DNA of 64,000 bases from contig JBEWZL010000056.1 of assembly GCA_045837725.1 (NCBI GenBank), positions 62,001 through 126,000 of the forward strand, in the 5' to 3' direction. The stretch comes from Vermamoeba vermiformis. Lineage: Eukaryota. This document shows, in pieces, positions 1,984 to 20,310 of this stretch (position 1 is the stretch's first letter; every line of letters starts with the position of its first letter). The position numbers were made by a program, and so were the translations under genes. The notes under the pieces were generated by a model. The model saw only the letters and a list, made by a program, of their open reading frames with translations. It did not search any database and was not told the DNA's origin.

Positions 1984-4788
1984 ATGTTGGCGACTTCAAT
2001 CATTTCCAAGCTGAGCACGGAGCAAATCCGAGTTTGGCCTGGCAGATCTTATCCTCTCGGCGCAAGCTGGGACGGTGCTGGCGTTAACTTCGCTCTTTTT
2101 AGCGAGACAGCTGACAAAGTCGAGCTCTGCTTATTCGATAGCGCTAATGACCAGAAAGAAAAACATCGTGTCTTGATGCAATGGAAGGACGACTACGTTT
2201 TCCACTGCTTCTTGCCTGATGCTCGTCCTGGTCAAATTTACGGCTTCAGAGTGCACGGAGAGTACGATCCTTCCAAGGGTAAGCGGCTTTTCTACCACAT
2301 TGCATTTCGAAAAATTTTCAGATTTCGCAAATCTTTTTGTTAATTTCTACGCTTCAAGAAGATATTGATTATCAATTTATTAATAACTAATATTTAAATA
2401 TAGGTCTTCGCTTCAATCATAACAAGGTTTTGGTCGATCCCTACGCCAAGGCAATTGTCAGACACGCAAAATGGCACGACTCCATGTTTTCTTACAAAAT
2501 GGGCAGCGATGACTTTGCTTTTGACGTATGCAATTACATTGAATATTTTCCATCGATAAATCGAATCCGTAATTAACGGTAGAAATTTCTTGCTTTTGCG
2601 CGCTGGATGCGGATTCCTTTTGGAGTTTTGCTAATTTGACAATATTAGGATACTGACAATGCTGCTTACTGTCCCCTCGCAGCTGTCGTTGATGATGCAT
2701 TCACTTGGGGCCACGACTCTCAGTTAAACATTCCCTGGAACAAAACCGTGATCTACGAAACCCACATCCGCTCATTGACCATGACGCATCCAGAAGTGCC
2801 TGAACATTTGCGCGGTACTTACGCTGGTATGTGCTTCGAGCCTATTATCAACCACTTGAAGGATTTGGGCGTCACTGCTGTAGAATTGATGCCAGTGCAC
2901 TATCATATTGACGAGCGAAACCTTGTCGATCAAGGCTTGTGCAACTTCTGGGGCTATAATACTCTTAGTTTCTTCGCGCCCGATAATAGGTATGAATATA
3001 TAGTGCATTTTAAGAGGATATTTCTATCTATTTTGAGACGAATCTAACTTGATCCTCGCAGATACGCTCACACCGACAATCCTCTCGAGGCTGTTTCAGA
3101 ATTCAAGACTATGGTTCGTATTCTCCACAGTCACGGCATTGAAGTCATTCTCGACGTCGTTTACAATCACACTGCCGAAGGAAACCACATGGGTCCTACT
3201 TTCAGCTTCAAGGGCATTGATAACAGAGCTTACTACCGCGCTGTCGAAGGCGACGCTCGATATTACTTCGATTATACTGGTTGCGGTAAGTATTATAAAT
3301 CTAAAACTCATCGCGTACCGGAGATCTGATCTTCCTTTTTAGGCAACTCTTTGAACGTTCGTCATCCTCGTGTTTTGCAACTCATTATGGACAGCTTGCG
3401 TTATTGGATTACTGAAATGCACGTTGACGGTTTCAGATTCGATTTGGCCAGCACTCTCGCTCGTACTTTTTACGAAGTCGATAAATTGGGCGCGTTTTTC
3501 GACATTATCCACCAAGATCCGGTCATCTCTAAAGTGAAGCTCATTGCCGAGCCTTGGGATTTAGGAGATGGTGGCTACCAAGTCGGTAACTTCCCCGTGT
3601 TGTGGACTGAATGGAACGGTCGCTTCCGTGACGGATGCAGATCCTTCTGGAACGGCAAGGGCGTAACTTTGACTGAATTGGCTAACAGATTGGCTGGCAG
3701 TCAAGACCTTTACCAAGACAGTGGTATGTATATAGCCGTTATCTACTTGGAACTAGTGCTAATTTTATCGTGTTAACTAGGTCGTGCTCCATATGCCAGT
3801 ATCAACTTTGTCACTGCTCACGACGGTTTCACATTGTACGATCTCTGCGCGTACAACGACAAGCACAACGAGGCTAACCGCGAAGACAACCGCGACGGCG
3901 CTAATGATAATATGAGCTGGAACTGCGGTGCTGAAGGCGAGACGTCTGACTTTGAGGTCAACGAACTTCGTTGGAGACAACGTGCTAACATGATGGCCAC
4001 CATGTTCTTGTCATTGGTATGTGCATAATAGGCCCCGTTCTTAATAGACAGACACTAATGTTGCGTTAATAGGGTGTCCCTATGATCTCTGGTGGCGACG
4101 AGTTGTCGTTCACTAAAAAGGGTAACAACAACACGTACTGTCAAGACAATGAATTGAACTACTATGATTGGAACATGGAAGACGAGTTCAAGGTCGAGTT
4201 CTTGGACTTCACTAAGCGCTTGATCAGCTTGCGAAAGAGATTCTCCGTCTTGCAACGTCGCAGATTTTTGTCCGGAAACCCAGTTGGTATTTCAGGCTCG
4301 AAGGACATTACTTGGTTCAATCCTTCTGGCGCCGAGTTGTCCAACGATGAGTGGCACTCACCGAGCACGCAATGCATTGGTTATATTATGGAAGGCAGCG
4401 CGATCAACCAAGTTACTGAGCGAGGCAAGGCTGTCGTCGGTGACACTTTGTTGGTTTTGATCAACGCTCAATTCCACGACGTTAAGTTCAGCATTCCCGA
4501 GCACTTCACTAAGAAGCCATGGTAAGTTATGCTCATAGTATTCATAGTATTTTAATTTCGTTGCTTCCACATGTGGATCCGAACAGCTTACTGACAAAAA
4601 TTTTTTCTCTTAGGACTTTGATTTTGACAACGTCCCTTCGTGACAAGGATAAGACTGGTTACCGATACGAAGCTGGTGATGAATTCGATGTGCAACACCA
4701 CAGCTTGGCTTTGTTCATTATCTCAAAGCGAAATTACGGCTCTATGGTGGAACTCACTAGCAGCAGCGAGTGGTTAGAGCTCCATTAA
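1984..4788 (+). CDS. glgX: Glycogen debranching enzyme / isoamylase, bacterial GlgX type (GH13), about 7 introns
   Basis: [60 protein letters not shown], and catalytic motifs [23 protein letters not shown], then [10 protein letters not shown] and [11 protein letters not shown]. Exons are joined by GT-AG introns (e.g. 2279-2403). Confidence 0.95.
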
Positions 4789-8879: not shown

Positions 8880-9966
8880 AATTTATATAGATCATATTGG
8901 ATTACTTTTAATGGCTATCGTACTGATTTTATTTTTGACGATCCAGATCCAGCGATTAAAGTGTGCATTGTGTGCTATTAAAGTGCGAAATTTCTTTGAG
9001 AAAATACCTGACGAGAATACATCAACTAAAATATAATCGATCAATACCTTACAAGTGCAACACCTGCTGAATTTGTATGGATCCGTTTGGATCAGACAAA
9101 AAATCAACTTTATTTGTTCCCAGTACAATTTTAATACGCTTTAATACGAAACTTTTAATAAGAATGTTATCGCTAAGCAGTTTTTTAGCCGGTTGACGAA
9201 TGCAGGTGGGAATCTTCGGATTCAGGTACGATATCACTCTCTTCCTTCTTCGTGGACATCAAGTGCGGTGTGCGGGAGTCTTTATGTTCCCGTAATATAT
9301 TTTAATAATTAAACCACAAATGATCACTTCCGGGTCGACTACTTACTTTTTGGGGTTAAGTTCCCCAAACTCACTTCTGTTCCAGCTCCACTCTACCTTA
9401 TTTTCAGTACTTATTATTTCATTATAAAACGAAATGTCTGGCAGTTGACCAGAAAAAATGAAGCCTTAAAAATCGAGATCGGTACGGATCGTTCCAGAAA
9501 ATTTCGCAGTTCCTCTGGTGTTTAAGCCAATATTATTATTTTCTGTCGACTAAATCTTTGTAACAAGATAACAACAATGAGCAACGTAGCGCAGATTCTT
9601 CAAGCAGGCGACGCCATCACCTTTATGGAAGTAAGTTCAAGAACGAGTGAAAGGGTATAAGCGAAATCTGTTCGCTAATAACTAAAATATAGGCCGGTGT
9701 CAGATCTCCTTATATGGGATTTTGGTTCATTGGGCTTGAAAAATACCAGCAAAAGAATTTTGGTCGGGCAGATGTGTTTTGGAGACGATTTGATTTGTTC
9801 GGTGGCCTTCAAGTAAGAAATATATTATCTTATTTAACAATTTAACAATTAAATTATTTAATCGTTATTCTAAAGGAGTACAAGTTCACAAATGGAGTTT
9901 GGGGATTTGACGCAAAAACGGATTCAGTTCACATTGACATTATTAAAGAACAGTACTCCTACAATA

Positions 9967-10214
9967 TGTAACGTAAGAAATTACCCGTTGAAGACTTTGC
10001 GCGGATTCGCTATTACCCGGATCGCGTAATTGAATAACATTATTTGAATAATCCAATATCCTAATAGGCTAAATAATATTATTAATAATTATATTAGCCT
10101 AAATAATAATCAAAAAGTATAAATACGCTACTCGCGTAGCGAATCTCTTTGTACCTCTCTTTTATATAATAAACAACACATCTCTTTGTTGTAACAGCTT
10201 ATTTATTTGTTACA
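9967..10214 (+). repeat. 5' LTR of the Gypsy element
   Basis: Reads as identical to 20063-20310. TG...CA termini, internal TATAAATA and AATAAA, inverted repeat TAGGCTAA...TTAGCCTA. Confidence 0.97.
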
Positions 10215-10230: not shown

Positions 10231-10863
10231 ATCCTATCCGATTCTTCACGCGACAACACTTTTCAACTCACATCTGACATCCGACATCCGCTGACATGTA
10301 CACTCGTCGAAGACGCACCCGTGGACGTGGCTCTCGAGGAGGGAGACAATCAATCTCTGCCCCGCAATCACCTTTGGTATCTCCTGCTAACAACAATACG
10401 CCCGCTGGATCTTCAGCTGAAAGTCAGGATGAGGCCCCATACGACTTCGCTGAGGGAGGAGAATTTCGTGACGTGCATGGTAATAATGTACATATTCCGC
10501 CGCAACCTCCTGTCAATAACCAGCAAGTTCCGCCTGTTGGAGTGGCTGATCCGAATCCGAATCGAGCGGAGAATGGAATTCTTTTCGACATCCAACGCAC
10601 TCTACATCGGTCAAACCTCGCTATTGAACGTCTCAGTAACCGCTTGGACATATTTGAAGCTCGTATGGATCGACAAGAGACTTTGCTTCATATGGCTCGC
10701 AACGCTGCTCGGAACAACCCGCAACCTGGCCTGGATCAGCAGCAGAGACAACATAATCCTCCTCAACAATCGTTTAGAGTCGAGGACAAGCACTTCCCGC
10801 AAGCAATCAAGCCCTTTACTGGCAATGGTGAACCTTCTGCCGAAGAGTGGATCAAATCCGTGC

Positions 10864-11058
10864 AGCTACAGTGACGCAGCACTTAGCGTATGAATAGGCC
10901 AAGCGGATCGGTTTTTGGCAGCCCTGGTGGAGAAGTCACGTGCGATTCACACCAAAATTGGAAGTTCGAGGAAATAGAAGTGTCGAACGCCAACGCCAAG
11001 ACTACCACAAGGCTCGTATATTTGACAGAGCCTAATATTTATTTGTTAATTTTTTCTT
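10864..11058 (+). repeat. Split direct repeat A1 (195 bp)
   Basis: Matches 15229-15423. Confidence 0.95.
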
Positions 11059-11080
11059 AATTCGGAAATAAATTTCAACG

Positions 11081-12463
11081 ATGACTGCGAGACAATCGTT
11101 TATCCAGAACCTAGTGGAGACACTCAAGACCCCACTACTCTCAAACTGGCCTGAAGCGCGACTCTGGAAGCAAGCTCTGGGATCCGTGAAATGGTCGATC
11201 ATAGATCAGGCTGGGTCAGATGTGGACCAGCTTCGCTTCTTATGCTCCCTGGCGTTGGCGTACTGCTTAGGAGGGGAGTTTGATCAATTGGAGCGCAGTC
11301 CAGCAGTGTCGAAGGAGGAAATCTCTCGGATCTACTCCAAGGCGGCAGATTTAGTGGAGGATCCGGAGCTGTTGCCGTTGTTGGCCCCAGTGACTAAACG
11401 GGTGGAGAATTGGTCGTCCCAGGGACCTCCTCAGCCAGTGGATCGCCCATCGGAGTCTCCTGAGAAGATCAACTCGGATGGCGACCAAGATTCAGAAGAC
11501 TCAGACAGTACTGAAGCGGAGATTGCCCGAGCTGTCCGAGAGTACATGAAGAAGAAGCGCAATAAACGGCAGAAGATCGGAGAGTCTCAACCGAAGACCC
11601 CTGCTACAGCTCCAGCAGTTCAGATCACGGATGTCCCCCCTCCTAGCGCTTTGGCGAAAGACCCTAAGGTGGCGGCGGGTGCTGACGCACTTATCGCCCA
11701 ATTGGAGCTCAAGTTGTCGTCGATGAAATCGCAGTTGGACTCGCTAGCCGGGAGCCTCGTTCCCCAGAGCCCCATCAACAACTTGCTTTTGCCTCAGCCC
11801 TGGGGCCAATCTTTGATCCACGGAACGTCGAAAGCCACCCCTGTTGGTCAACTGGCGGACGTCCAAGCGACAGTCGAGCTGAGGAAGCCAGGCCAGGTCT
11901 ATCTCCCGCGCTGTTTCACCAAGGAGGCATTGGAGAAGAGGTTGCAACCCTCGCAGGCTAAGGTCCCACAGAACGCGGAGGATTATATCCGAGCGTCGTG
12001 GGAAGTCAAGGACCTCCTCGAGAAGGAGGAAGGTTTTGTCGAGCGAGATTACAATGCCTTTGTCCGCTGGATCGTGGAGCTTGGTGATGGCTACGAATGG
12101 CTCTCAGTTATGGCACTGGACGAGCGCCTCAGATCGCTCCAAGCAGTGGGCAAGCTTCGCTGGAAAGACAGGCCCTTGGAGAGCCTCTTCACTACTCTTC
12201 GAGCGCGTCCAATTCATCAACGTGCCGAGGCCAAGCAGGACAACAAGCCCAAGGCCTTTTCAGGCACCAAGAAGAAGAAGGGTGTCTGCTTTGCTTTCAA
12301 CGGTCACAAGGGTTGTTCGAAGAGCTCTGATGCATGCGAGTACTCTCATTCTTGCTCTGACTGTAAGTCCTCCAATCACAATGTCCTTCATTGCTCCAGT
12401 GGCCCAAAAGGCCATCCCGGCAAGACGAGTTCATCGGGCGCGTCTGCGGAGCGCCGGGAGTAG
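11081..12463 (+). CDS. Gag-like ORF1 of the YR retrotransposon
   Basis: 460 aa with a C-terminal Cys/His finger CFAFNGHKGC...CEYSHSCSDC...HNVLHC and a YEWLSVMALDERLR block typical of DIRS/Ngaro gag. Confidence 0.85.
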   Translation: MTARQSFIQNLVETLKTPLLSNWPEARLWKQALGSVKWSIIDQAGSDVDQLRFLCSLALAYCLGGEFDQLERSPAVSKEEISRIYSKAADLVEDPELLPLLAPVTKRVENWSSQGPPQPVDRPSESPEKINSDGDQDSEDSDSTEAEIARAVREYMKKKRNKRQKIGESQPKTPATAPAVQITDVPPPSALAKDPKVAAGADALIAQLELKLSSMKSQLDSLAGSLVPQSPINNLLLPQPWGQSLIHGTSKATPVGQLADVQATVELRKPGQVYLPRCFTKEALEKRLQPSQAKVPQNAEDYIRASWEVKDLLEKEEGFVERDYNAFVRWIVELGDGYEWLSVMALDERLRSLQAVGKLRWKDRPLESLFTTLRARPIHQRAEAKQDNKPKAFSGTKKKKGVCFAFNGHKGCSKSSDACEYSHSCSDCKSSNHNVLHCSSGPKGHPGKTSSSGASAERRE

Positions 12464-14025
12464 AGATCGTAGCCCGCTCTAGTGCAGTGACCCTCCGCTT
12501 CAATCAGTGGAAGAGATTCTTGGTGGGGGACTCTGACGCCGACTTCCTGACCGACATTTTCAAGCCTGGTGGTGGCCTTCGAGTTGTCAAGGAGGGTGTG
12601 GCTGTGCCAGCGTCTTTCTTGCCGAACTACGCTAGTGTCTTGGAGTGCGAAGACTTCATCCACCAAGACATTATGACGGAACTAGAGAAGGGTTTCATTG
12701 CAGTACTGCCAGTCCAACCATACAAAGTCAATGCTCTTGGTGCAGTCAAGAAGAGCGAAGGCAAGTTCCGTCGCATTACTGATCTCAGTCGCCCAAAGGG
12801 TGCGGCGTTGAATGAATACATTGATTTGGTCAATTTTCAGTTTAGCACGGTCGATGATGCATGCGACTTCATAATGGAAAACCCTTGGGTTTTTGGCTGC
12901 AAGTTCGACATTGAAACAGCTTATCGTCATGTCCCGATCTGGCCGGGTGACTGGCATTACTTTGGCTTCGAGTGGCGTGGCACCTTCTACATCGATCTGC
13001 GCCTCTGCTTTGGTCTAGCTTCAGCTCCTTACGTTTTCTGGAGAATTTCTAATTTCATTGTCCGAGTAGGCAACAAGTTCTTTAACGTGGCCTTCATTTT
13101 GCCCTACATTGACGACTTCCTCGTGCTTTCTGTTGGCACTGACTCTGATGCTGCACGCGCTCAAGCTTGGAAAGACTTCGTCAATTTCCGCGAGTGTCTA
13201 ACCGAATTGGGTTGGCCAATTTCAGAGAAGAAGATGGTTGAGCCCTGTCAGGATCTGGTCTTCCTTGGCATCCGCATCAATATGCATGATCGCATCATTT
13301 CTTTACCAGAAGACAAGCTAGCTGACCTTCTCGACATTCTACGGAGCTTCAAGGATCGAGTTTCGTGCACTAAGCGCGATCTGGAGCGCTTGATTGGTAA
13401 GCTCAACTTCGGCGCTAAAGTGATCAGGGGCGGACGCACTTTCCTCCGCCGCATGATCATCCTGGCCAACTCGGTCCCAGAGCGACATCACGTGGTGTCT
13501 CTAGACGATGAATTCCGTGCAGATTTGGATTGGTGGCTTCGATTTGCGAGCGCCTGGAATGGCAAAGCCGTTATGCTGGACCCAATGCCCATTGACATGC
13601 GTCGGTTTGAGGTGGACGCCTCAAATAGTGCTGCGTGTGCTATCTTCGACAAGCACTTCATCGTGCGGATCCACGACCCTTTGACATCTGCGTGGCACAT
13701 CAATGATAAGGAGTGCCTTTCAGTCTACTTGGCTGCGCTTCGCTGGGCCCCAGAATGGGCCAACAAGCGGGTGATCGTCTCATCGGACAATACCACGACC
13801 GTTTCGGCCATCAACAAGGGGTCTTCAGCATCCCCAATCATCATGCGAATGCTACGGTCTCTGTTTTGGCTATCAGCGACACACAACTTTCACTTGACTG
13901 CGGTCCACGTACCGGGGGTTCTTAACGACCTGGCAGATGCGGGTTCGCGATTGAATTTCGACAAACTGATTGACAAAGGGCTCTCCATGCAGTTGTGCCC
14001 CGAGTTTGATCCAGAATGTCTTTGA
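12391..14025 (+). CDS. Reverse transcriptase / RNase H of the YR retrotransposon (no N-terminal ATG)
   Basis: KFRRITDLS, KFDIETAYRHVPI, LCFGLASAP, YIDDFL, FLGIRI; RNase H motifs VDAS, HINDKE, SDN, HVPGVLNDLADAGSR. Confidence 0.95.
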   Translation: MLQWPKRPSRQDEFIGRVCGAPGVEIVARSSAVTLRFNQWKRFLVGDSDADFLTDIFKPGGGLRVVKEGVAVPASFLPNYASVLECEDFIHQDIMTELEKGFIAVLPVQPYKVNALGAVKKSEGKFRRITDLSRPKGAALNEYIDLVNFQFSTVDDACDFIMENPWVFGCKFDIETAYRHVPIWPGDWHYFGFEWRGTFYIDLRLCFGLASAPYVFWRISNFIVRVGNKFFNVAFILPYIDDFLVLSVGTDSDAARAQAWKDFVNFRECLTELGWPISEKKMVEPCQDLVFLGIRINMHDRIISLPEDKLADLLDILRSFKDRVSCTKRDLERLIGKLNFGAKVIRGGRTFLRRMIILANSVPERHHVVSLDDEFRADLDWWLRFASAWNGKAVMLDPMPIDMRRFEVDASNSAACAIFDKHFIVRIHDPLTSAWHINDKECLSVYLAALRWAPEWANKRVIVSSDNTTTVSAINKGSSASPIIMRMLRSLFWLSATHNFHLTAVHVPGVLNDLADAGSRLNFDKLIDKGLSMQLCPEFDPECL

Positions 14026-15091
14026 CAGCGGAAGATTACATTGGCCTCGGCTATGTGGACTCCACGGTCAAGGCCAGGCAGGCAGTGGTTTCGGCCTTTG
14101 CCAGGTTCTGCTACGCTTCGAATCGAACATTCTTCCCGACGAACGAGTTTGTCCTGGCCGACTACGCGGCATATCTTGCAAATAATGGCGTCAAGGCAAG
14201 TTCGATCAAGACATACTTGACAGCCATTTTCGCTTTTCAACAGTTGCATGGTGGCCCACACCCAGCGCGTGACAGCCTTCGCCTCAAGGTGGTCCTCAAG
14301 GGCATTAAACGCGCGCAGTCCTACACACCGTCGAGCAAGCACCCTCTCACTCCTGTGGAGTTGCTCAAACTCAAGGCGTGCTTAGACTGGTCATCATCTC
14401 TCCACCGCACTTTCTGGGCTTGCCTCGTGGTCGGCTTCTGGTCTTTTCTTCGGGGTGGAAACCTTGTGCAGAAATCTGCGAAGAAATTCGACCCAGCAAA
14501 GCATCTCAGCGCGTTGAACTTGTCAAGGAACGAGCGTGGTTTCTTAATTTCGCTCAATCGAACGAAGACAGTCCAATTCAACGAGAGAAGGCTGATCATC
14601 CCGCTGCTCTCAGTACCGGGAAATGCGCTGTGTCCCGAAGTGGCCCTGGAGGCGATGTGGGCCTTGTGTCCCATGCCTGAATCGGGGTCGATTTTTTGTT
14701 TTAAAGGTGATGACGGTAGAGTTATGCCGCTGGTGCACTCGAAGCTTAACGATAGTAAGTATCGTGGCAGTAGTTGCATATTGTGCTTACTTACCTGTTT
14801 TCTCCAGTGATCAAGAAGACCTGCCTTCAGTGCGGGTTGGATCCGAAGGATTTCTCCGCACACTCGCTGCGTAAAGGTGGCACGACGGGAGCCTTCATCG
14901 CGGGAGCGGACAGGGTGATGGTCAAGGCTCAAGGAGACTGGGTGTCAGACGCCTACATGCGTTACGTCACTTTTTCTCTGGATCAGCGCTTGTCAGTCCC
15001 ACAGGCGATCATCGAGGCGATGAGAACTCCTCAATTTTTTGAGCGCTGCTCTTCCTTGTCTCTGGCGACGGCGGCGGCAATCTATCAATGA
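14016..15091 (+). CDS. Tyrosine recombinase, join(14016..14754,14808..15091)
   Basis: SAM-like N-terminus (ASSIKTYLTAI), catalytic R (FLRGGNL) and K (RTKT) in exon 1. HSLRKGG and GDWVSDAYMRY in exon 2. Intron GTAAGT...CTCCAG. Confidence 0.92.
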
Positions 15092-15120
15092 TCTGGTTTG
15101 GGGGCTCGTTCGCTGTGTTT

Positions 15121-15228
15121 GGGGGCTTTGGTGCTCTCGTTAGCCCCAACCCGTGGCGGGGGGTGACGGGGAGCCACCACCCCTAATAAAGCTGAATTTA
15201 CCCCCACGAGCAGCGCAGGCATTCGTGC
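15121..15228 (+). repeat. Split direct repeat B1 (108 bp)
   Basis: Matches 15457-15564; GC-rich; contains AATAAA. Confidence 0.95.
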
Positions 15229-15423
15229 AGCTACAGTGACGCAGCACTTAGCGTATGAATAGGCCAAGCGGATCGGTTTTTGGCAGCCCTGGTGGAGAAG
15301 TCACGTGCGATTCACACCAAAATTGGAAGTTCGAGGAAATAGAAGTGTCGAACGCCAACGCCAAGACTACCACAAGGCTCGTATATTTGACAGAGCCTAA
15401 TATTTATTTGTTAATTTTTTCTT
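15229..15423 (+). repeat. Split direct repeat A2
   Basis: Matches 10864-11058 and directly abuts B1. Confidence 0.95.
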
Positions 15424-15456
15424 TTTAATTTTTATTTTTATTCACGTTGTACAATA

Positions 15457-15564
15457 GGGGGCTTTGGTGCTCTCGTTAGCCCCAACCCGTGGCGGGGGGT
15501 GACGGGGAGCCACCACCCCTAATAAAGCTGAATTTACCCCCACGAGCAGCGCAGGCATTCGTGC
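15457..15564 (+). repeat. Split direct repeat B2
   Basis: Matches 15121-15228 and forms the right end of the element. Confidence 0.95.
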
Positions 15565-16320
15565 GCTCATTTATCGAAGACCAAGAAGGATGGACCGAAG
15601 CTATGAAGAAACAAGTCTTCTATTGCAGAACAAGTGATGGTGCTTATAATCACTTGGTTATCGCTAGTTTGGTATCAAGCGACATACTTTCGAAGAGATC
15701 TTGACTGAAATTCTCAACGAATATGGTGGTGGCAACCAAGACATGGTAAACTCGCTTCATATGAAAAATCTTGAGCAGTCTGACACTGAGACTGTCTCTG
15801 AATATTTTATGAGATTTTACAAGATCGCATCCAGAATTTCGAACCGATCTGACAGCGACAAAATGCATGATTTTATTTCAGGACTTCGTCTTGATATTCA
15901 AGAGTCCGTCGTGCATAAACAGCCCACCTCATTACATCAAGCTGTCGAGTTAGCTAAGAACGCTGAAGCCTGGACCGCGATGTATGGCAAGAAGAGAAAG
16001 AACGCTGCCAAACCTGCCCCGGTTCAACAAACGACCGTCAAGCCCTTCTTTTTCAGCAGAAACAATGGTCAATCGCCTCAACGCACGAACCCAATGGTCA
16101 CATCTGGATCTCCTCAGAATAATTCCAAAGTCGCGACTCCCGCTGCGACAAGCAAGTCAAATCAAGCTGCGACGCCCAAGACACCTGCGCCTAGCAACTT
16201 TGCCAAGAGACTTGACTACAACACCCCTTACCGCCCGCAACAGTTCAACAACATTGACGCATCCGAACTGGATCTTGACGAGAATTACGTTTTGGACGAC
16301 GATGAACTTGACGTCGACCA

Positions 16321-19300
16321 GGAAAACGACCAGTTGGAGGAGTAAATGGCTCGCCTCACTCCTTAGAGCAAGAGCCTTACAGCTCAATACCCTTTGAACT
16401 ACCCATTCTACAGCCCGACTACAACCCTTACCCAATCAAACCTCTCATCATACCTGCCTTTGTTCACAACATATTATCCGACACTTTATGGGATACTGGC
16501 GCCTCAAGATCGTTCGTCACCCCAGATCTCGTCAACGAACTCAAGATCAAGACTCACGCTGGTACACTCAACGTCAAAAACTCAAATCAACAACGGACAA
16601 CGCTCACTCACTATGCAATTGTTCCTATTCGACTCACTAATGGTTTCTCTATGGACTTCAAATTTTGGATCAACGACAAAATCAACTTTCCGCTAATTTT
16701 TGGTATGGATCTACTTAACGTCATGAAGCCTGTTCTGGATTTCGAGACTAGGCAAGTCTATTTTAAGCCTAGGATTATTCCCTACTCACCAGACAATATC
16801 ACGCGCGATACAACGATCATTCAACTGGAACGAGATCTACGCGTTCCCGCTCGCTGCGAGATGCGCTGCTCTTTACCTACTAATATGGCTGATGGTACCT
16901 CTGGTCTCATTGAACGTGCCGAATCTATCTCTGATCAATATGGCGTTACTTTGGCTCACAGTTTAACGACATCCAAAAATGGAAATATTATTGTCCGATT
17001 CTTAAATCCTCACGATACGGACATTATCATCAAGAAGAACACCAAAATTGGTCGCATAGTGCCCTATGAATTGCTTAATGAATTCTCTGACGAAGACTGC
17101 ACGTACACACAAGAAGAATTCTTCGCACCGTTCAAACTCGAAGAACGCTACAAACACTTGACTGCGCAACAACTAGAAATGCTCAAAAACACTATTTGGA
17201 AATGCCGCAACGCCTTCTCTTTTGGTTCTGACGCTCAACCTGGTTTAACTGACAAAGGAGAACATCGCATTGACCTTACTGACGAAACTCCGTTCAAACA
17301 GCATGCTTATCGCGTTCCGTACACTCAACGTGAATTCATGAAAGAGAAAATCGATCAAATGCTGGCTCAAGGCGTCATCTCAGTCTCGTCATCGTCATTC
17401 GCTTCACCTGTGGTTTTGGTTAAGAAGAAAGATGGCTCTCTACGATTCTGTGTGGACTATAGAAAACTCAATGGCGTAACTGTCAAAGACTTATATCCGT
17501 TGCCGAGAATTGACGACATGCTAACTTTACTTAACGGCAATCTTTATCTCTCAACACTAGACGCAGAAAATGGCTTTTGGCAGACCCCACTAGTGCCTAA
17601 AGATCGTCACAAAACTGCTTTCATCACTCCGTTTGGACTCTTTGAATTTAACCGGATGCCGTTTGGTCTTTGCAACGCTCCGTCAACATTTCAACGTCTT
17701 ATGGATGTGGTACTCTCTGGACTATTATGGCAAATCTGTTTGGTATATATGGATGATATTATCGTATTTGGACGCTCGTTCGAAGAACACTTACTAAATT
17801 TGGAAACCGTACTCAAAGCGCTCATCACCGCTGGTATCAAGCTCAAGCCCAGCAAATGCAACTTTTGTCAGGAAGAACTCAAATTCCTTGGTCATATCGT
17901 ATCAAAAGATGGCATTGCTACGGATCCAGAAAAGATCGAGAAAGTCAAGAATTCCCGAGAACCAACCAACGTCGAAGAATTACGCTCTTTCCTTGGACTT
18001 ACTGGTTACTATAGAAAATTCATTCAAAACTATGCTAATATCGCAGAACCTCTCATTCTACTCACCCGTCAAAACAACGCTTGGAAATGGGATCTCGCTC
18101 AACGATCCGCTTTCGAAGAGCTTAAGAAGAGGTTAACAGAAGCACCCATTTTAGCTCATCCCGATTTCGACTTGCCCTTCATTCTCTACACTGACGCTAG
18201 TTCCGTTGGACTTGGTGCCGTTTTATCACAAATTCAAGATGGAAAAGAACGCGTAATTTCGTACTGGTCCTCGACACTTGACCCTGCTAAACGAAATTAT
18301 TCCGCTACTGAAAGAGAATATATGGCCGTCGTCGAAGCTGTCAAGAATTTCCGTTACTACTTACTTGGAAAGAAATTTGAATTGGTCTTGGATCATCAAT
18401 CACTCGTCTTCTCACGCACTATGAAAGATGGAAATCAACGACTACTCAAATGGAGCTTATTTTTGCAAGAATATGATTTTGACATCGTTCATCGCTCAGG
18501 AAAATCACACTCGAACGCAGATGCACTCTCGCGATTGCCGATCGTCACTCTCAACAACATAATTGAAGAAGAAGTCGACATGCCCATCAATTTCACGACA
18601 GAACAAATCCAACAAGCCCAAGCTTTGGACCCTCTTATCAAGCCGCTCTTGGATCTCGTCACTACTCGATCCAAATCTAAAAATAGAAAGAAACAAAAGA
18701 AGTTAGAAGATTTCGTGGTCGAAGATGGCATATTATATCGCAACTATAGACCTAGTGGCATCGAAGAATTAATTCAGCGACAACTGGTACTTCCGCTCAC
18801 GCTCCGACCTCAGATCCTGAAATTCTATCACGATTCCGCTATTGGTGGTCATTTTGGATTCATGAAAACATATGGAAAAATTAGAGAACGCTTCTACTGG
18901 TTTGGAATGGCTAAAGATATTCAACACTACGTCTCATCTTGCGAATCCTGCTGTCGAAGGAAAATTCAACGCAAGATCTTTGGTGAACTCACTCCAATCG
19001 TCGTAAGCGAACCCTTCGAAATATTAGGAATGGATCTATTAGGTCCCTTCAAACCAACCAAGCACGGAAATAGCTACATTCTCGTCATGAGCGATCACCT
19101 GTCAAAATGGGTCGAAGTTTTTCCGCTCGCCGAAATTACATCAGCTGACATCGCTAAAATCTTGGTCGAAGAAGTAATTTGCCGCCATGGCTCCCCTCAG
19201 AGAATTCTCACTGATCAAGGCGACAATTTCAACTCGCAACTCGCTCATCAGATCTACAACATTCTCGCTGCTAAGAAAATGCGCACTGTGGCATATCACC

Positions 19301-20067
19301 CTCAAACGAATGGACTCACTGAACGCTTCAATCAGACTCTCGCTCAACAACTCACTCCGTTCGTCAACGAGAAGAAATTTTCAATTGCCTACAAAGTCGC
19401 CAAGCAAAACGTTGCTCAACGCAACGCTGATCTCAAAGAAGACAAGAAGTATCTTTACAAGAAGAAACAGAAGCTCAAACCGAAAGACATAGTCTGGTAC
19501 GCGCTCGCAAAACTTCCGCCTGGAACGACGAAGAAATTGGCTTATCGCAACATTGGTCCCTATGAAATCGAATCACTTCGTGGCAACAACGCACTCATAG
19601 TTAGTCCCACTGATCCAAAAGATAGACTCTACGTCAACGTTGGACAACTACGACTTCAGATCCCTCGCCGAAAAGAATTGGATATGGAAATTTCATCTTC
19701 TACCGATGAAATCTTACCCGCCGCTGATGACACGCCGCCTACACCTCATCAACGATCGCCGCCTGCGAAAACTCAACGAAAAACCACTGCCCGAAGAAGA
19801 AAATCTCCGTCAGATCTACTGCTCGAAAATCTACGCCTTATCTACACCTCAGTTCGAGATGGTGAAATGCTCAACGCATTCAAGACATCGCTGAAAGAAG
19901 CTATTGGCGAAGGTAGTGCCTGGACTACGTCAACGAAAGTCAAGAAACAATGGGAAAATCAGATCGTCACTGCAAGCACCGCTGCCGCCCTCAAAGAACT
20001 CATCGACAAATTCATCAAAGAAAATAACTTGGAGGACCAAGTCAAAGCTAACGAGGGGGTAATGTAA
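16321..20067 (+). CDS. pol: Gypsy pol (PR-RT-RNase H-IN), probably expressed by -1 frameshift; integrase appears internally deleted
   Basis: The frame is open upstream of Met 16651 and contains protease LWDTGAS. RT LRFCVDYRKLN and YMDDII; RH YTDAS and NADALSR; IN HHCC, GMDLLGP, TDQG, NGLTERFN, IGPY. The stop lies within the 3' LTR. Confidence 0.93.
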   Translation, partial: GKRPVGGVNGSPHSLEQEPYSSIPFELPILQPDYNPYPIKPLIIPAFVHNILSDTLWDTGASRSFVTPDLVNELKIKTHAGTLNVKNSNQQRTTLTHYAIVPIRLTNGFSMDFKFWINDKINFPLIFGMDLLNVMKPVLDFETRQVYFKPRIIPYSPDNITRDTTIIQLERDLRVPARCEMRCSLPTNMADGTSGLIERAESISDQYGVTLAHSLTTSKNGNIIVRFLNPHDTDIIIKKNTKIGRIVPYELLNEFSDEDCTYTQEEFFAPFKLEERYKHLTAQQLEMLKNTIWKCRNAFSFGSDAQPGLTDKGEHRIDLTDETPFKQHAYRVPYTQREFMKEKIDQMLAQGVISVSSSSFASPVVLVKKKDGSLRFCVDYRKLNGVTVKDLYPLPRIDDMLTLLNGNLYLSTLDAENGFWQTPLVPKDRHKTAFITPFGLFEFNRMPFGLCNAPSTFQRLMDVVLSGLLWQICLVYMDDIIVFGRSFEEHLLNLETVLKALITAGIKLKPSKCNFCQEELKFLGHIVSKDGIATDPEKIEKVKNSREPTNVEELRSFLGLTGYYRKFIQNYANIAEPLILLTRQNNAWKWDLAQRSAFEELKKRLTEAPILAHPDFDLPFILYTDASSVGLGAVLSQIQDGKERVISYWSSTLDPAKRNYSATEREYMAVVEAVKNFRYYLLGKKFELVLDHQSLVFSRTMKDGNQRLLKWSLFLQEYDFDIVHRSGKSHSNADALSRLPIVTLNNIIEEEVDMPINFTTEQIQQAQALDPLIKPLLDLVTTRSKSKNRKKQKKLEDFVVEDGILYRNYRPSGIEELIQRQLVLPLTLRPQILKFYHDSAIGGHFGFMKTYGKIRERFYWFGMAKDIQHYVSSCESCCRRKIQRKIFGELTPIVVSEPFEILGMDLLGPFKPTKHGNSYILVMSDHLSKWVEVFPLAEITSADIAKILVEEVICRHGSPQRILTDQGDNFNSQLAHQIYNILAAKKMRTVAYHPQTNGLTERFNQTLAQQLTPFVNEKKFSIAYKVAKQNVAQRNADLKEDKKYLYKKKQKLKPKDIVWYALAKLPPGTTKKLAYRNIGPYEIESLRGNNALIVSPTDPKDRLYVNVGQLRLQIPRRKELDMEISSSTDEILPAADDTPPTPHQRSPPAKTQRKTTARRRKSPSDLLLENLRLIYTSVRDGEMLNAFKTSLKEAIGEGSAWTTSTKVKKQWENQIVTASTAAALKELIDKFIKENNLEDQVKANEGVM
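20053..20062 (+). promoter_or_regulatory. Polypurine tract
   Basis: GAGGGGGTAA immediately before the 3' LTR. Confidence 0.75.
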
Positions 20068-20310
20068 CGTAAGAAATTACCCGTTGAAGACTTTGCGCGG
20101 ATTCGCTATTACCCGGATCGCGTAATTGAATAACATTATTTGAATAATCCAATATCCTAATAGGCTAAATAATATTATTAATAATTATATTAGCCTAAAT
20201 AATAATCAAAAAGTATAAATACGCTACTCGCGTAGCGAATCTCTTTGTACCTCTCTTTTATATAATAAACAACACATCTCTTTGTTGTAACAGCTTATTT
20301 ATTTGTTACA
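20063..20310 (+). repeat. 3' LTR of the Gypsy element
   Basis: Reads as identical to 9967-10214 and is followed by TSD CAATA. Confidence 0.97.

Follow-up and report, generated by a model that had tools for sequence, protein, structure and literature searches.

A candidate -1 ribosomal frameshift site between gag and reverse transcriptase in a Ngaro-type retrotransposon of Vermamoeba vermiformis

Introduction

In the gag-pol genes of retroviruses and long terminal repeat (LTR) retrotransposons, -1 ribosomal frameshifting takes place at slippery heptamers of the form X_XXY_YYZ, such as U_UUU_UUA followed by a hairpin in human immunodeficiency virus type 1 or A_AAA_AAC in mouse mammary tumour virus, and the yeast L-A totivirus uses G_GGU_UUA followed by a pseudoknot. 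Here, we propose that the same mechanism joins gag to the reverse transcriptase and RNase H gene (RT/RH) of a Ngaro-type retrotransposon in the amoeba Vermamoeba vermiformis. The element belongs to the tyrosine-recombinase (YR) retroelements, the least studied retrotransposon order, and spans positions 10856-15564 (4.7 kb; three plus-strand genes, gag, RT/RH and YR) of a 64,000-nucleotide stretch of contig JBEWZL010000056.1 (assembly GCA_045837725.1, positions 62,001 to 126,000 of the forward strand), which we call the window. Judging from sequence, we put at roughly three in four the probability that a -1 programmed ribosomal frameshift yields a Gag-RT/RH fusion of 981 amino acids (aa) from this element.

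The locus shares with retroviral and LTR-retrotransposon gag-pol a gag that ends past a zinc knuckle, a pol/RT frame in -1 without a start of its own, an in-phase X_XXY_YYZ heptamer, a spacer of 5-6 nucleotides (nt) and a GC-rich structure, and its relatives use the classic A_AAA_AAC. It differs in its carrier, a YR element with no protease or DDE integrase, whose fusion protein would be unprocessed, and in its heptamer, C_CCA_AAA being a rarer and reportedly less efficient type; the stimulatory structure here is a candidate only. Its likeness to the L-A totivirus lies in a -1 frameshift that gives an uncleaved Gag-polymerase fusion, incorporated through its Gag part, in a system without a protease. 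L-A, however, is a double-stranded RNA virus with an RNA-dependent RNA polymerase and unrelated sequence, whereas here gag is followed by RT/RH and then by a YR gene.

Excerpts of two surveys (PMC3783388, PMC3266345) describe Ngaro elements with the order gag, RT/RH, YR, no methyltransferase, and repeats arranged as A1 ... B1 A2 B2, all of which are found in the window copy, which differs in having an intron in YR. According to the same excerpts, Ngaro and Viper elements are usually without overlaps between their open reading frames (ORFs) (Piednoel et al. 2011, PMC3266345), and the YR ORF alone is mentioned as carrying a frameshift in some cases (Muszewska et al. 2013, PMC3783388). Within the excerpts of the literature searched (including PMC3783388, PMC8547959, PMC6681497 and PMC3266345), we found no gag/RT frameshift or slippery site described in Ngaro or other YR elements; the founding Ngaro paper (Goodwin and Poulter 2004) and a review (Poulter and Butler 2015) lay outside this search, so a prior description is possible. 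A preliminary description of the locus had likewise remarked that such a frameshift was not established for Ngaro-type elements, in agreement with the search as far as it reached.

The gag/RT overlap

The RT frame lies at -1 relative to gag and overlaps it by 97 nt (12367-12463), and it contains no ATG before residue 103 (nt 12673). The preliminary description, which had RT overlapping gag in the -1 frame, open from 12367 and without an early ATG, is exact in this respect. It was also right about an in-phase heptamer, C_CCA_AAA at 12403-12409, which we find to be the sole X_XXY_YYZ of the overlap in any phase; across the whole of gag there are two in-phase heptamers in 463 codons. The spacer of 6 nt that it gave holds to the C-G stem at 12416 and shortens to 5 nt if the U12415-A12459 pair is counted. 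Canonical spacers measure about 5-9 nt, and that of the window falls within this range. An excerpt of a Recode-derived list includes CCCAAAA as one of 20 heptamers with known or suspected use in vivo. The features of the junction are as follows:

11081-12463, plus strand: gag ORF, 460 aa, with a CCCH-like finger and, at its end, a C-x2-C-x4-H-x4-C knuckle (12353-12394); TAG stop at 12461-12463
12367-14025, plus strand: RT/RH ORF, -1 relative to gag, no ATG before 12673; 538 codons from 12409 in the proposed fusion
12403-12409, plus strand: slippery heptamer C_CCA_AAA, proposed -1 slip site, in gag phase GG[C CCA AAA] (Gly-Pro-Lys)
12410-12414, plus strand: spacer, 5 nt to the U12415-A12459 pair and 6 nt to the C12416-G12458 stem
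12415-12459, plus strand: GC-rich branched hairpin, candidate frameshift stimulator, -21.7 kcal/mol
12472-12476, plus strand: GCCCG, proposed 3' arm of a pseudoknot with 12435-12439, unsupported

The gag frame is open from 11072 to 12463 with its first ATG at 11081, and its product has no Pfam match. The RT/RH ORF matches Pfam RVT_1 at 4.3e-08, and its match to RT_RNaseH is weak. Taken alone, the heptamer is weak evidence. The main support for frameshifting comes from comparison, because the heptamer, hairpin and pseudoknot features are weak by themselves.

Conserved RT sequence upstream of the first ATG

A search for RT homologues returned 51 proteins, 19 of which were aligned with the stop-to-stop RT ORF of the window. 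In this alignment, similarity begins at about V35-W48 (nt 12469-12508), and two invariant RT columns, G70 and N87, precede the first ATG. Conserved RT residues are thus encoded ahead of that codon, and translation of RT must therefore enter its frame before any ATG that the frame offers. The N-terminal methionines of database RT homologues are untrustworthy as a guide to its true start, because P0007, which is the window's own RT as annotated, begins MGDSDA where the DNA gives V(GTG)GDSDA.

Might RT/RH then be translated by itself, through reinitiation, a non-AUG start (such as GTG 12487), an internal ribosome entry site or a subgenomic RNA? Gene callers do start the window's RT at a GTG, as P0007 illustrates, some related loci described below have an RT-frame ATG at or soon after the gag stop, and the YR ORF of the element itself has its own ATG, overlapping the end of RT. 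Nevertheless, we consider independent translation of RT unlikely. The RT frame lacks an ATG throughout 12367-12673, with the invariant columns encoded upstream of 12673. Under ribosome scanning, initiation at an internal non-AUG codon, 1.4 kb from the start of an mRNA and behind a fully translated ORF, is unexpected, which disfavours such a start here. Independent translation also fails to explain two features described in the next section, namely a slip dipeptide at a fixed position in gag and in-phase heptamers in all five related loci with a -1 layout. Frameshifting from gag into RT accommodates both.

Gag homologues and related elements

A full phmmer scan with gag gave 95 hits at E <= 1e-3, 7 of them at E <= 1e-10. 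The nearest homologue, P0060, is 53% identical overall and stops at the same residue as the window gag; its last 22 residues (PKGHPGKTSSSG.S.ERRE) are identical to the window at 20 of 22 positions, both differences being Ala to Thr. Gag and RT proteins identical to those of the window occur in other data sets (P0059, P0007), and one relative (gag 53% and RT 76% identical) has separate gag and RT proteins, with the gag stop at the same residue.

For the analysis of gag tails we took 95 proteins, P0060 and 94 non-self hits, and kept the 82 with a CxxC in their last 60 residues; the 13 dropped for lack of one were P0075, P0078, P0087, P0090, P0100, P0110, P0114, P0117, P0119, P0122, P0139, P0140 and P0154. 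A P[K/N] dipeptide stands 17-18 residues before the stop in 7 of the 82 (1.1 expected, binomial p 1.6e-4), and a C-terminal KN followed by 0-2 residues is found in 8 (0.55 expected, p 1e-7). When the window, four of the related loci below and 10 homologues selected for showing these patterns were aligned, PK, PN and KN shared one column, 3-7 residues past the last Cys/His of the C-x2-C-x4-H-x4-C knuckle. These dipeptides correspond to slippery codons: C_CCA_AAN encodes PK or PN, and A_AAA_AAC encodes KN.

The nucleotide collection scanned for related elements consisted of bacterial and archaeal genomes. A first scan of genome contigs, by close-relative alignment, gave 19 pattern matches, none of which was confirmed, and a second gave eight loci (L001-L008) whose RT is 29-36% identical to that of the window. 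By RT identity these fall into the lineages {L002, L003}, {L004, L006, L005}, L001 and L008, with L007 left out. All five loci that have a -1 gag/RT layout (L002-L006) carry an in-phase A_AAA_AAC at the matching position (L002 2789, L003 711, L004 2482, L005 1087, L006 1607), including L006, the gag frame of which is broken by one stop. A TAG follows the heptamer directly in L004, L005 and L006. The five loci represent two lineages, with RT about 30% identical between them and to the window. Conservation in related elements, which the preliminary description had proposed as a check, is thus borne out by these five loci, by the P[K/N] tails and by the near-identical tail of P0060.

The eight loci lie on contigs filed under bacterial metagenome-assembled genomes (Sedimenticola, Ca. 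Thiodiazotropha, Bacteroidetes and unclassified) and are eukaryote-type gag-RT-YR retroelements; the third ORF of L002 matches Phage_integrase at 6.5e-06. Most simply, the contigs are host or eukaryote contamination of the bins. In L001, gag and RT share one frame with a single TGA between them (3602-3604), an arrangement that points to readthrough of the stop codon and not to frameshifting, unless the copy is a decayed one.

The relatives have a run of seven A (GAAAAAAAC), and this would suit a change of frame at the RNA level, in which some transcripts gain a base through polymerase stutter on the run. In other systems, runs of seven A are long enough for polymerase slippage. The window, however, has a run of only four, too short by comparison with those systems, and what the window and its relatives have in common is the X_XXY_YYZ phase, not a long homopolymer. 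Stutter therefore strikes us as extremely improbable, and ribosomal slippage on the heptamers as the reading that suits window and relatives alike.

Splicing is another way in which RT might be joined to gag, by removal of an intron of length 3n+2 running from GTAAGT at 12363 to a downstream AG. The element does have one real intron, of 53 nt in YR, and of the two GT[AG][ATG]GT donor-like sites found on the plus strand of the element, one belongs to this intron and the other is GTAAGT 12363. Moreover, an open gag-RT frame would result from 49 GT..AG pairs, five of which use the 12363 donor (acceptors at 12424, 12451, 12460, 12472 and 12487). On inspection, the 15 nt preceding each of these five acceptors are G-rich and without a pyrimidine tract, unlike those of the YR intron (CCTGTTTTCTCCAG), and the sole intron-like acceptor, TTGCTCCAG at 12399, gives an intron of 37 nt and continues in the third frame, where a stop follows at 12482. 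The interval to be removed codes for the second half of the CCHC knuckle and for the tail, both conserved as protein up to the gag stop, and the relatives have slippery heptamers instead. With in-phase acceptor signals lacking and the interval being conserved coding sequence, we rejected splicing from GTAAGT 12363 as very unlikely, and retain frameshifting as the likely source of the fusion.

As a separate observation on the 12363-12399 interval (GTAAGT ... CTCCAG/TG), its donor hexamer and the last eight bases around its acceptor are the same as those of the YR intron.

Structure downstream of the heptamer

The preliminary description had drawn a stem of CCCGGC (12416-21) with GCCGGG (12453-58) after the heptamer, an inner stem of AGACG (12423-27) with CGTCT (12441-45), and a pseudoknot between the loop CGGGC (12435-39) and GCCCG (12472-76). 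All three pairs are complementary, and local folds form the two stems, at -21.7 kcal/mol for a 51-nt segment and -19.0 kcal/mol for a 43-nt segment. The folded hairpin comprises an outer stem (12415-21/12453-59), a middle stem (12423-27/12441-45) and a weak inner helix (12429-32/12436-39). Compared with 3969 segments of 51 nt obtained by sliding along the coding part of the element, it ranks in the most stable 0.3% and is the second most stable locus there, and it coincides with a local GC spike of 72.5%. The hairpin is unusually strong for the element and correctly placed, and its strength is a matter of composition. A role as frameshift stimulator is plausible. If the two Ala-to-Thr differences in the P0060 tail arose by single-base changes, they would miss the outer and middle stems.

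The sole 51-nt locus more stable than this hairpin, at 14638-14693 (-25.3 kcal/mol), belongs to exon 1 of YR and precedes the YR intron donor by about 60-115 nt. An Rfam scan of 10800-15600 at E <= 1 gave no matches. In the five related loci, the minimum free energy (MFE) of the sequence downstream of the heptamer, compared with shuffles at four lengths each, fell at or below 5% in one of the 20 comparisons (L006, 120 nt, z -1.93).

Points that weigh against frameshifting

Several of our results count against the proposed frameshift, beginning with the structure itself. Dinucleotide shuffles were equally stable in 38 of 200 cases for the 51-nt segment (z -0.84) and in 26 of 200 for the 43-nt segment (z -1.17), and over all comparisons the hairpin's z against shuffles was -0.84 to -1.33. 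When the folded segment is lengthened to 71, 98 or 121 nt, the MFE fold no longer contains the outer stem and z turns positive, and in the 71-nt ensemble the pair probability is about 0.30 for the outer stem and about 0.88 for the middle one. The RNAalifold consensus of the relatives, at about -6 kcal/mol, is weak and comes from only 2-3 sequences. The stems of the preliminary description therefore stand as complementary sequences that fold locally, but not as a fold statistically distinguishable from shuffled sequence. Its pseudoknot fares worse. A Watson-Crick match of at least 5 bp between the loop and the next 41 nt arises in shuffles and in real-sequence controls alike at a rate of 27%, and forming it would exchange an inner helix of -4.7 kcal/mol for a duplex of -8.3 kcal/mol with the pseudoknot penalty still to come. 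Although CGGGC and GCCCG are complementary, we rejected the pseudoknot, since the match is at chance level and its energetics roughly neutral.

On the side of the heptamer, about 0.16 in-phase heptamers are expected by chance, from base composition, in an overlap of this size, and an excerpt of PMC9609781 reports C-triplet slippery sites as the least effective type. The gag tail patterns were picked after the data had been seen and come from mutually related proteins, and in the window's own lineage the slip site is known from amino acids alone. Longer in-frame gag-RT fusion proteins were searched for and none was found, which is weak evidence either way. Lastly, three of the eight related loci differ from the -1 pattern: L001 has its in-frame TGA, L008 a +1 layout with no evident site, and L007 is rearranged. 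The RT-frame ATG overlaps the gag stop in L003, lies a few codons past it in L004 and L006, and is upstream of the heptamer in L005. Because of these ATGs near the gag stop or ahead of the heptamer, reinitiation or own initiation may apply to RT in L003, L004, L005 and L006.

The chance expectation for the heptamer and the comparison of the hairpin with shuffles would also suit a -1 layout without any function, produced by a frameshift mutation, an assembly error or a dead copy, with heptamer and hairpin there by coincidence. The state of the element is against this, with repeats 100% identical (A1/A2 99.5% by blastn) and three intact ORFs, and so are the identical proteins in other data sets, the relative with separate gag and RT proteins and the same gag stop, and the recurrence of the layout in three lineages only about 30% identical in RT. 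A functionless layout is accordingly highly improbable in our view.

On balance, frameshifting at C_CCA_AAA is the best explanation of the junction, with splicing, own initiation and a broken copy less likely. The features of a canonical -1 signal found here are the frame layout, an in-phase heptamer, the spacer and conservation in relatives. The Gag-RT fusion by -1 frameshift that the preliminary description put forward is supported by the conserved RT sequence upstream of the ATG, by the shared Pro-Lys/Asn column and by the A_AAA_AAC of all five -1 loci.

Proposed mechanism

How would such a fusion be made? Ribosomes would begin gag at ATG 11081, and most would stop at UAG 12461, giving the 460-aa Gag. 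A minority would slip by -1 on C_CCA_AAA, tRNA-Pro in the P site exchanging CCA for CCC and tRNA-Lys in the A site exchanging one AAA for another, and would go on in the RT frame from AGG 12409, giving Gag (443 aa) joined to RT/RH (538 aa), 981 aa in all. Pausing of the ribosome on the heptamer is probably the work of the hairpin 5-6 nt downstream. The fusion would stay uncleaved because the element is without a protease, and through it RT would enter Gag assemblies in a low, fixed proportion, as happens in other Gag-Pol systems. That slippage occurs, how efficient it is, what the hairpin contributes and what becomes of the fusion protein are matters that we infer. A weak C-triplet heptamer fits a low ratio of Gag-RT to Gag, and the weaker heptamer of the window's lineage may explain its pairing with the strongest local structure.

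More broadly, Ngaro-type elements may have long and widely made an uncleaved Gag-RT fusion by -1 frameshifting a few residues past the CCHC knuckle, with at least two interchangeable designs, a proposition on which we are evenly divided. The first design may consist of the strong A_AAA_AAC with, in several elements, the gag stop directly after it, and no evident structure. The second may pair the weaker C_CCA_AAN with a GC-rich hairpin, with gag ending exactly 17 codons further on. The gag C-terminal KN and PK(+17) signatures may then mark recoding at the protein level in the YR order.

The host element

The remaining features of the element are the following:

10856-11058, plus strand: split direct repeat A1, 203 nt; second copy at 15221-15423
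15121-15564, plus strand: split direct repeats B1 (15121-15228), A2 (15221-15423) and B2 (15457-15564)
14016-14754, plus strand: tyrosine recombinase exon 1, its ATG overlapping the RT end; aligns to residues 36-253 of YR homologues
14755-14807, plus strand: YR intron, 53 nt, spliceosomal-type (GTAAGT ... CTTAC ... CAG); the ORFs on either side match successive parts of uninterrupted homologues
14808-15091, plus strand: tyrosine recombinase exon 2, with HSLRKGG and a YMRYV tyrosine region; aligns to residues 281-337 of YR homologues

The repeats stand in the order A1 ... B1 A2 B2 that the Ngaro type requires, and in the repeat comparison the A1/A2 and B1/B2 pairs are each 100% identical. The element is an intact, recently inserted Ngaro-type retrotransposon. 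The window holds no second copy of it, and the three ORFs have no Pfam match to a methyltransferase, protease or DDE integrase, the absence of a match being weak evidence. The YR intron has no counterpart in four related loci, the YR ORFs of which, on comparison, are all uninterrupted. Its retention in a retroelement implies that the RNA copied was the unspliced form and that YR is made from spliced RNA only.

The YR ATG (14016) sits 7 nt before the RT stop (TGA 14023-14025), with YR in the -1 frame relative to RT. The RT/YR junction of the window has no slippery heptamer and an ATG instead; among five related loci checked, the RT/YR overlap holds in-phase heptamers in two, and the YR frame of L004 is not -1. 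We rejected a second frameshift at this junction, for which there is no case with heptamers in two of five loci, none in the window and an ATG there; more likely, it seems, YR is made by coupled reinitiation or from a spliced mRNA of its own.

The Ngaro-type element is itself nested in a Ty3/Gypsy LTR element, which has identical 249-nt LTRs at 9966-10214 and 20062-20310 and the rest of its gag (15668-16345) and its pol (16312-20067) downstream of the insertion. Both insertions look recent. The Gypsy pol is also -1 relative to its gag, with an overlap of 34 nt (16312-16345) that has no canonical in-phase X_XXY_YYZ, the nearest candidate being G_GAA_AAC at 16321-16327.

Significance

The mechanism proposed here is a textbook one, and the proposal would widen coverage and improve annotation without adding a new principle. 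What the element most likely offers is a known -1 frameshift mechanism in a group of elements for which we found no description of one; how RT is expressed relative to Gag in YR elements is undescribed in the literature searched. If the proposal is true, annotation should join gag and RT as a 981-aa transframe product, rather than begin RT at an arbitrary GTG as in P0007. The gag C-terminal signatures would then be a cheap means of finding more such sites, and Gag-Pol recoding would reach a class of retroelements that has no protease.

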